Origin: Escherichia coli
Lineage (GTDB): Bacteria > Pseudomonadota > Gammaproteobacteria > Enterobacterales > Enterobacteriaceae
Direction: 5' to 3' (one strand)
DNA length: 64,000 nucleotides
Assembly (NCBI RefSeq): GCF_045037415.1
Contig: NZ_CP173438.1
Shown here: positions 19,201 through 21,872 of the stretch, one piece after another
Layout of the letters: each line of letters begins with the position of its first letter
Position numbering within the stretch: position 1 is the first letter of the stretch
Program-made: the position numbers

Positions 19201-21872
19201 CCGTCTCGACCGCGAACACTATATCGAAGAGTTTGTCGGCCATCTGCGCGCTGAGATGAAAGCTGAAGGCGTTAAAGCCGAAGTGTATGGCCGTCCGAAA
19301 CACATCTACAGCATCTGGCGCAAAATGCAGAAAAAGAACCTCGCCTTCGATGAGCTGTTTGATGTGCGTGCGGTACGTATTGTCGCCGAGCGTTTACAGG
19401 ATTGTTATGCCGCACTGGGGATAGTGCACACTCACTATCGCCACCTGCCGGATGAGTTTGACGATTACGTCGCTAACCCGAAACCAAACGGTTATCAGTC
19501 TATTCATACCGTGGTTCTGGGGCCGGGTGGCAAAACCGTTGAGATCCAAATCCGCACCAAACAGATGCATGAAGATGCAGAGTTGGGTGTTGCTGCGCAC
19601 TGGAAATATAAAGAGGGCGCGGCTGCTGGCGGCGCACGTTCGGGACATGAAGACCGGATTGCCTGGCTGCGTAAACTGATTGCGTGGCAGGAAGAGATGG
19701 CTGATTCCGGCGAAATGCTCGACGAAGTACGTAGTCAGGTCTTTGACGACCGAGTGTACGTCTTTACGCCGAAAGGTGATGTCGTTGATTTGCCTGCGGG
19801 ATCAACGCCGCTGGACTTCGCTTACCACATCCACAGTGATGTCGGACACCGCTGCATCGGGGCAAAAATTGGCGGGCGCATTGTGCCGTTCACCTACCAG
19901 CTGCAGATGGGCGACCAGATTGAAATTATCACCCAGAAACAGCCGAACCCCAGCCGTGACTGGTTAAACCCAAACCTCGGTTACGTCACAACCAGCCGTG
20001 GGCGTTCGAAAATTCACGCCTGGTTCCGTAAACAGGACCGTGACAAAAACATTCTGGCTGGGCGGCAAATCCTTGACGACGAGCTGGAACATCTGGGGAT
20101 CAGCCTGAAAGAAGCAGAAAAACATCTGCTGCCGCGTTACAACTTCAATGATGTCGACGAGTTGCTGGCGGCGATTGGTGGCGGGGATATCCGTCTCAAT
20201 CAGATGGTGAACTTCCTGCAATCGCAATTTAATAAGCCGAGTGCCGAAGAGCAGGACGCCGCCGCGCTGAAACAGCTTCAGCAAAAAAGCTACACGCCGC
20301 AAAACCGCAGTAAAGATAACGGTCGTGTGGTGGTAGAAGGGGTCGGTAACCTGATGCACCACATCGCGCGCTGCTGCCAGCCGATTCCTGGAGATGAGAT
20401 TGTCGGCTTCATTACCCAGGGGCGCGGTATTTCAGTACACCGCGCCGATTGCGAACAATTGGCGGAACTGCGCTCCCATGCGCCAGAACGCATTGTTGAC
20501 GCGGTATGGGGCGAGAGCTACTCCGCCGGATATTCGCTGGTGGTCCGCGTGGTGGCTAATGATCGTAGTGGGTTGTTACGTGATATCACCACCATTCTCG
20601 CCAACGAGAAGGTGAACGTACTTGGCGTTGCCAGCCGTAGCGACACCAAACAGCAACTGGCGACCATCGACATGACCATTGAGATTTACAACCTGCAAGT
20701 GCTGGGTCGCGTGCTGGGTAAACTCAACCAGGTACCGGATGTTATCGACGCGCGTCGGTTGCACGGGAGTTAATCTTACATAGCTGGATATGGCGTCAGC
20801 CGTATCCAGCGATATCTTTTACTCGAAGGTATTACACCTGACGGACCCGCAATTTTCAGGATAATTCAATGAATCAAATCGACCGTTTGCTCACCATCAT
20901 GCAGCGCCTGCGCGACCCGGAAAACGGCTGCCCGTGGGATAAAGAGCAGACATTTGCCACCATTGCGCCTTACACCCTTGAAGAAACCTACGAGGTGCTG
21001 GACGCCATCGCCCGTGAAGATTTTGACGATCTGCGCGGTGAACTGGGCGATCTGCTGTTCCAGGTGGTGTTTTACGCACAAATAGCTCAGGAAGAAGGGC
21101 GCTTTGACTTTAATGATATTTGCGCTGCTATTAGCGATAAATTAGAGCGTCGCCATCCGCATGTTTTTGCTGACAGTTCTGCCGAAAATAGTAGTGAAGT
21201 GCTTGCCCGTTGGGAGCAAATCAAAACCGAAGAGCGCGCGCAGAAAGCGCAGCATTCGGCGCTGGACGATATTCCTCGTAGTTTACCGGCTTTAATGCGT
21301 GCGCAAAAAATCCAGAAACGTTGCGCCAACGTTGGTTTCGACTGGACGACGCTTGGTCCGGTAGTCGATAAAGTCTACGAAGAGATCGACGAGGTGATGT
21401 ACGAGGCGCGGCAGGCTGTTGTCGACCAGGCTAAACTGGAGGAGGAAATGGGTGACCTGCTGTTTGCCACGGTCAATCTGGCTCGTCATTTAGGGACAAA
21501 AGCGGAAATCGCATTGCAAAAAGCGAACGAAAAATTCGAGCGTCGTTTTCGCGAAGTGGAGCGTATTGTTGCCGCGCGTGGACTGGAAATGACAGGTGTT
21601 GACCTCGAAACAATGGAAGAAGTCTGGCAACAGGTAAAACGGCAGGAAATTGATCTCTAAGGGAATTACGTGGTCAAGCGCGATTTGTGTCATTTTTTAA
21701 ATGACAAGCGCTTGATTTGCGTCAAAAACATTTACCCCAAAGGGGCTATTTTCTCACTCCTGATTTCAATAGTGCGCTGGCGAAGAGGAGGGATAATGAA
21801 AGTTTGTGGCACAGGTCATGTTCGGGTATACTGCTTTCCCGTCCTGGTTATTCCATCGTCTTTTCAACCTAA

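Follow-up and report, generated by a model that had tools for sequence, protein, structure and literature searches.

Does the relA–mazG junction of this Escherichia coli chromosome, which lacks the mazEF toxin–antitoxin (TA) pair known from K-12, record the loss of that pair, or a site into which the pair was never inserted? The window, that is, the whole 64,000-nt stretch of DNA that was analysed, belongs to an E. coli of ST131/O25b:H4 type, which we take to be phylogroup B2. Over its first 25 kb the window is matched at 100 % identity by many E. coli from human clinical sources, among them an O25b:H4 strain and SA186, and the SA186 genome is collinear with the window over all 64 kb at 99.995–100 % identity.

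The relA–mazG junction in the window and in K-12

The genes and intergenic features of the junction, which has rlmD and pyrG as neighbours, are as follows.

18539–20773, plus strand: relA (GTP diphosphokinase), 744 aa, stop codon TAA at 20771–20773
20774–20868, plus strand: complete relA–mazG spacer, 95 bp, the empty mazEF site
20774–20834, plus strand: segment specific to the empty allele, 61 nt, without significant match in the 731-bp K-12 relA–mazG spacer
20783–20810, plus strand: REP-like hairpin, 12-bp stem and 4-nt loop, beginning 9 nt past the relA stop and followed by GATATCTTTT
20835–20868, plus strand: mazG leader common to mazEF-bearing strains, 32/34 nt identical to K-12
20858–20861, plus strand: mazG Shine–Dalgarno sequence AGGA, 7 nt ahead of the ATG
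20869–21660, plus strand: mazG (nucleoside triphosphate pyrophosphohydrolase), 263 aa

An earlier, sequence-only reading of this DNA had relA ending at 20773, mazG starting at 20869 and a 95-bp spacer that holds the mazG ribosome-binding region. This layout was confirmed by the ORF list and by NCBIfam, in which relA is the GTP diphosphokinase equivalog (1678 bits) and mazG is MazG (419 bits); the AGGA at 20858–20861 accounts for the ribosome-binding region. The K-12 junction consists of a 731-bp spacer with mazE (82 aa) and mazF (111 aa), and the figure of about 0.6 kb first given for the two genes is thus right.

No homologues of MazE or MazF were detected in the 64-kb window by tblastn with the K-12 proteins as queries (E ≤ 1e-3); the K-12 MazF query itself matches Pfam PemK_toxin at 6e-24. 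Likewise, the SA186 RefSeq annotation contains no PemK/MazF or AbrB/MazE protein across the entire span of the window. The observation that no MazE- or MazF-like ORF occurs in the window therefore stands.

In alignment with K-12, homology stops at the relA stop codon and restarts 34 nt before the mazG ATG. Between these points approximately 697 bp of K-12, comprising the mazEF promoter/operator, mazE, mazF and a short tail, stand in place of 61 nt in the window. As these 61 nt have no match in the K-12 spacer, the difference between window and K-12 is a replacement and not a plain indel. The two loci thus share their flanking genes and the end of the mazG leader with its ribosome-binding site, but differ in all that lies between, and also in the relA stop codon, which is TAA in the window and TAG in K-12 and other mazEF-bearing alleles. 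No mazEF promoter or operator was found downstream of relA in the window, the first 61 nt of the spacer having no match to the K-12 relA–mazE region. In K-12 (locus L001) a 400-nt antisense RNA, ameF, is annotated on the minus strand at 1965–2364, where it covers the 3′-terminal 34 nt of relA and also mazE; it cannot be encoded by the empty allele.

Distribution and origin of the empty allele

The sequence-only reading had presented the mazEF-free junction as a peculiarity, a view that does not survive comparison with other genomes. A 59-nt marker for the empty allele (window 20774–20832) is carried by 1000 of the 5426 complete E. coli genomes (18 %), in one copy each and always on the chromosome. 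Carriers include an ST69 strain as well as CFT073, Nissle 1917 and JJ1886, in which the 59 nt are 100 % identical. K-12 mazEF cassette DNA is present in 4419 of the 5426 genomes, a number that does not change between megablast and blastn sensitivity; this steadiness indicates that the remaining 1007 genomes are without mazEF-like DNA anywhere, as judged by DNA-level search at blastn sensitivity. Both the marker and mazEF are missing from seven genomes, of which one, SW07163, carries a truncated cassette that is split over two places. Separately, seven plasmid records hold a mazEF relative of about 70 % DNA identity.

The haplotypes that flank the empty allele are diverse, as seen from contiguous matches of 100, 97.6 and 96.3 % identity (matches H1, H5 and H6, respectively), and mazEF is present in some B2 strains, namely 536, E2348/69 and CRE287.

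Absence of mazEF has been reported before. The pair is described as present in MG1655 and not in CFT073 (review PMC6343021), the classic relA-adjacent mazF is not encoded by CFT073 (PMC7232551), and many strains, e.g. UTI89, are without these systems and have relA–mazG as an undisturbed bicistronic operon (PMC7167474). These three reports make the finding a known one: the absence of mazEF here is an ordinary, already published strain difference, shared by about one in five E. coli genomes. The junctions of mazEF-negative E. coli (CFT073, UTI89, Nissle 1917, ST131) represent the same locus and the same allele as the window, with no substantive difference. That mazEF is absent from uropathogenic/B2 E. 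coli and that type II TA systems are patchily distributed among phylogroups are established. What is added here is the frequency of the allele in 5426 genomes and the apparently decayed REP hairpin of the empty site, replaced by mazEF, which is not described in PMC7167474, PMC6343021 or PMC7232551. Further additions are a scarred allele in E. albertii and, in Superficieibacter, a parDE pair that occupies this site, both described below. K-12 is not the reference state for the relA–mazG locus, and mazEF phenotypes and mazG regulation worked out in K-12 are not transferable to ST131, CFT073 or Nissle-type strains.

The 95-bp spacer is very probably one side of a common and old presence/absence polymorphism: a mazEF-empty allele with the pre-insertion architecture, in which relA and mazG most likely form a two-gene operon. 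Scanning GTDB species representatives with MazG gave at least 80 loci, a set in which E. fergusonii, E. marmotae and the main (K-12-type) E. coli representative do not figure. The 3′ end of relA lies upstream of mazG in 74 of the 80 loci listed, most spacers being 26–170 nt long, and no MazE or MazF matches were found among these 74 relA–mazG loci. The mazEF-free order, relA upstream of mazG, extends to 73 other species among the matches listed, which range from Citrobacter and Salmonella to Vibrio and Rheinheimera. Spacers of the first two genera begin with the TAA stop, have one or two canonical REP palindromes within about 10 bases, and continue with TTTCAGGAT-N7-ATG. Closer to the window, two divergent Escherichia lineages (L003 and L004) have the same 95-bp spacer (98 nt with the stop codon) and the same hairpin; the 3′ ends of their relA genes are 92.1 and 95.8 % identical to that of the window, respectively.

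Together, the architecture of the outgroups, the spacer shared among Escherichia, the lack of mazEF remnants and the 61 nt without K-12 counterpart identify the spacer as an empty allele of pre-insertion type. ‘Absent’ is here to be understood as not inserted rather than lost. The sequence-only reading had itself allowed that an ancestrally mazEF-free junction would overturn its account, and its point about loss falls on exactly this evidence. Its further statement, that mazG loses the mazEF promoters and any co-regulation with the TA pair, holds in one part: with no mazEF promoter in the spacer, mazG cannot be co-regulated with the pair. The word ‘loses’, which implies deletion, does not hold, as the evidence points to an empty allele of pre-insertion type.

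The ancestral order would have been the TAA stop of relA, a REP-type palindrome, decayed in the present allele, 9 nt further on, and then the mazG leader with its ribosome-binding site. In strains of K-12 type, a cassette of about 0.7 kb would have replaced approximately 61 nt that include the REP hairpin. Whether the ST131 lineage retained the empty allele or regained it by short-tract recombination, both of which are possible, the allele is in either case of pre-insertion type and not a deletion derivative.

The relA–mazG site is a recurrent landing pad for TA cassettes. Loci of TA insertion are plastic: Salmonella has parDE in its relA–mazG region, and another TA site carries REP sequences (PMC7167474). 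In Superficieibacter sp. 1612_C1 (L019) a parDE pair occupies positions 1737–2283, in the relA–mazG gap (Pfam ParD 1e-18, ParE 1e-11). These cassettes use the same intergenic site that is empty in the window. That the empty site exposes a REP-like hairpin, displaced by mazEF, agrees with the published proposal that REP-bearing intergenic regions are hot spots for the landing of TA cassettes.

Other long spacers were seen at this locus. In S. electus (L017) the relA–mazG gap measures 953 nt (1548–2500) and contains no intact TA ORF; only its last 140 nt or so are common with L019. Pectobacterium (L040–L042) and Samsonia (L045) have relA–mazG spacers of about 350–420 nt that are G+C-rich and filled with palindromes. 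These spacers contain no convincing ORF, gave no Rfam match (as seen with L040), and are of at least two unrelated sequence types among species.

The mazEF-bearing allele is old too, as indicated by a scar in E. albertii and by the divergence of the cassette in strain 536. The relA–mazG spacer of E. albertii NBRC 107761 (L005, 2240–2500) is 261 nt long and follows a TAG stop. It retains the mazEF promoter region (27/30 nt), a stretch that matches the mazF 3′ coding end at 15/15 nt and the K-12-type right flank (55/58 nt), and its middle is filled by REP elements. The spacer is a degraded mazEF-type allele, the cassette having later been destroyed in that strain. Such remnants imply that the mazEF insertion either predates the split of E. 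coli and E. albertii or crossed between species. The cassette of 536 differs from that of K-12 at 1.7 % of positions (12/695), and the flanks differ at about 2.3 %.

The age of the mazEF allele gives some substance to a secondary loss, in which an ancestor of ST131 or B2 carried mazEF and homologous recombination with a donor of the empty allele replaced the cassette, so that the site was emptied again. The near B2 relatives 536, CRE287 and E2348/69 carry mazEF in flanks 99.5 % identical to the window; divergence of the cassette on a par with that of the core flanks suggests long vertical residence in E. coli; and the mazEF-type allele reaches beyond E. coli, into E. albertii. However, the junction is not bordered by a cluster of imported SNPs. 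Between 536 and the window the flanks differ by 0.5 %, the nearest differences lying 0, 183 and 354 nt to the left and 2, 252 and 480 nt to the right, and no recombination-tract signature was seen at the junction in comparison of the window with mazEF-positive B2 strains. Without a SNP cluster, neither direction of change within B2 has left a signature, and the reverse event, in which the 536 lineage imported mazEF, is just as compatible with these data. Secondary loss is thus possible as a history of this lineage but doubtful, and even under it the allele itself would still be of pre-insertion type and not the product of a deletion.

A simple deletion that removed mazEF from an allele of K-12 type, whether by excision or by illegitimate recombination, would account only for the difference in length and has next to no likelihood: it was rejected since it cannot create 61 nt of allele-specific sequence that have no source in the K-12 allele, the same 61 nt recur in divergent Escherichia lineages, the stop codons differ, and a truly degraded allele, that of E. 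albertii, keeps promoter and mazF remnants, none of which were found in the window spacer.

The hairpin and the expression of relA and mazG

The spacer of the empty allele contains a single strong hairpin. The small hairpin first described as GCTGGATA-N12-TATCCAGC is real and larger than claimed, with the full form GCTGGATATGGC GTCA GCCGTATCCAGC; the 12-bp stem includes one G·U pair, and 7 of its 12 pairs are G-C. At −33.3 kcal/mol, the spacer is predicted to fold more stably than its dinucleotide shuffles (z = −5.1). At one stem position the window and L004 have T-A where L003 and the REP consensus have C-G, a change on both sides by which the pairing is kept.

A canonical REP palindrome, GCCGGATAAGGCGTTAACGCCGCATCCGGC, is located elsewhere in the window at 14274–14303, just downstream of barA, and served as the reference for REP-likeness. 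The hairpin is identical to it in 26 of 34 alignment columns, a score reached by 1 of 5000 shuffles and by 0 of 5000 hairpin-preserving shuffles. The hairpin thus resembles the REP consensus, and it is extragenic, between relA and mazG, with a stable stem-loop. In common with REP elements it is a palindrome of about 28 nt placed directly past a stop codon, the same position at which canonical REPs occur in Citrobacter, Salmonella and E. albertii. It differs from them in a loop of 4 nt instead of 6, in GCTGG for GCCGG, and in its head, where ATAG precedes the stem in the window versus GTAG in L003; the REP norm is GTAG/CTAC, recognised by the REP-associated transposase. REP elements exist in many copies, but this hairpin variant is single per genome, only the wider REP family being multicopy, and for this reason it is best called a REP-derived relic. 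The hairpin is considered a REP element that has decayed, as the ATAG head also suggests; the spacers of Citrobacter and Salmonella likewise contain REPs. No RNA families were found by Rfam at 20300–21300 (E ≤ 1), and the hairpin therefore does not correspond to any described sRNA or riboswitch.

The mazEF P2/P3 promoters, autoregulation by MazE/MazF and ameF are all absent from the empty allele. The layout is that of a bicistronic operon: relA and mazG are on the same strand, the spacer is short and has no promoter, and mazG has a ribosome-binding site of its own. Most likely, mazG is co-transcribed with relA, by read-through from the relA promoters, and the hairpin may act as a stabiliser of mRNA 3′ ends or as a partial attenuator for the relA message.

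The hairpin could instead be an efficient intrinsic terminator of relA, with mazG a separate transcription unit under its own promoter. A consensus scan flags the hairpin as terminator-like, given its 12 stem pairs, seven of them G-C, and the GATATCTTTT tail; the number of such matches equals the shuffle expectation, however, and the run of T residues, itself short and interrupted, does not directly follow the stem. Moreover, in several species of Citrobacter and Salmonella the REP palindromes of this position have no T-run. Efficient termination at the hairpin would require mazG to have a promoter of its own, and none was found in the spacer. The sole promoter-like match, at 20838–20865, was rejected as a mazG promoter: its −10 element reaches to within 3 nt of the mazG ATG and coincides in part with the Shine–Dalgarno sequence, which leaves no room for a translatable leader, and the number of such matches is again that expected from shuffles. 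Termination with a separate mazG unit is accordingly unlikely, and read-through from relA is preferred.

Liang, Rudd and Deutscher (Mol Cell 2015) reportedly found that terminating ribosomes stall when a REP follows the stop codon within about 15 nt, and that the amount of the upstream protein then falls via tmRNA. By analogy, the hairpin near the relA stop might tune RelA output. Insertion of mazEF would then have removed a conserved brake on RelA and changed the RelA:MazG ratio, and the old polymorphism, which extends across species, could be kept up by selection on stringent-response tuning and not on the TA pair. This chain of suppositions is improbable as a whole; if true, the two alleles would differ in function beyond the TA pair, in stringent-response expression.

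Other accessory differences in the window

A second difference from K-12 is seen further along the window, at the cysH–iap interval (48597–50912).

48597–49331, plus strand: cysH
about 49597–49749, plus strand: Hok/Gef ORF
49875–50912, minus strand: iap

The Hok/Gef type I toxin gene stands alone in this interval, which in K-12 holds the type I-E CRISPR-Cas locus. No I-E CRISPR repeat was found in the whole window. Type I-E CRISPR-Cas is thus a second K-12 accessory module that this strain lacks at the expected position, which is taken by a small toxin gene.

Additionally, a sucrose-utilisation cluster is located at about 26893–33371, between ygcE and queE. It comprises a sugar kinase, a carbohydrate porin, a sucrose PTS IIBC component, a sucrose-6-phosphate hydrolase and a LacI-family regulator, and it looks like an accessory island in this lineage.
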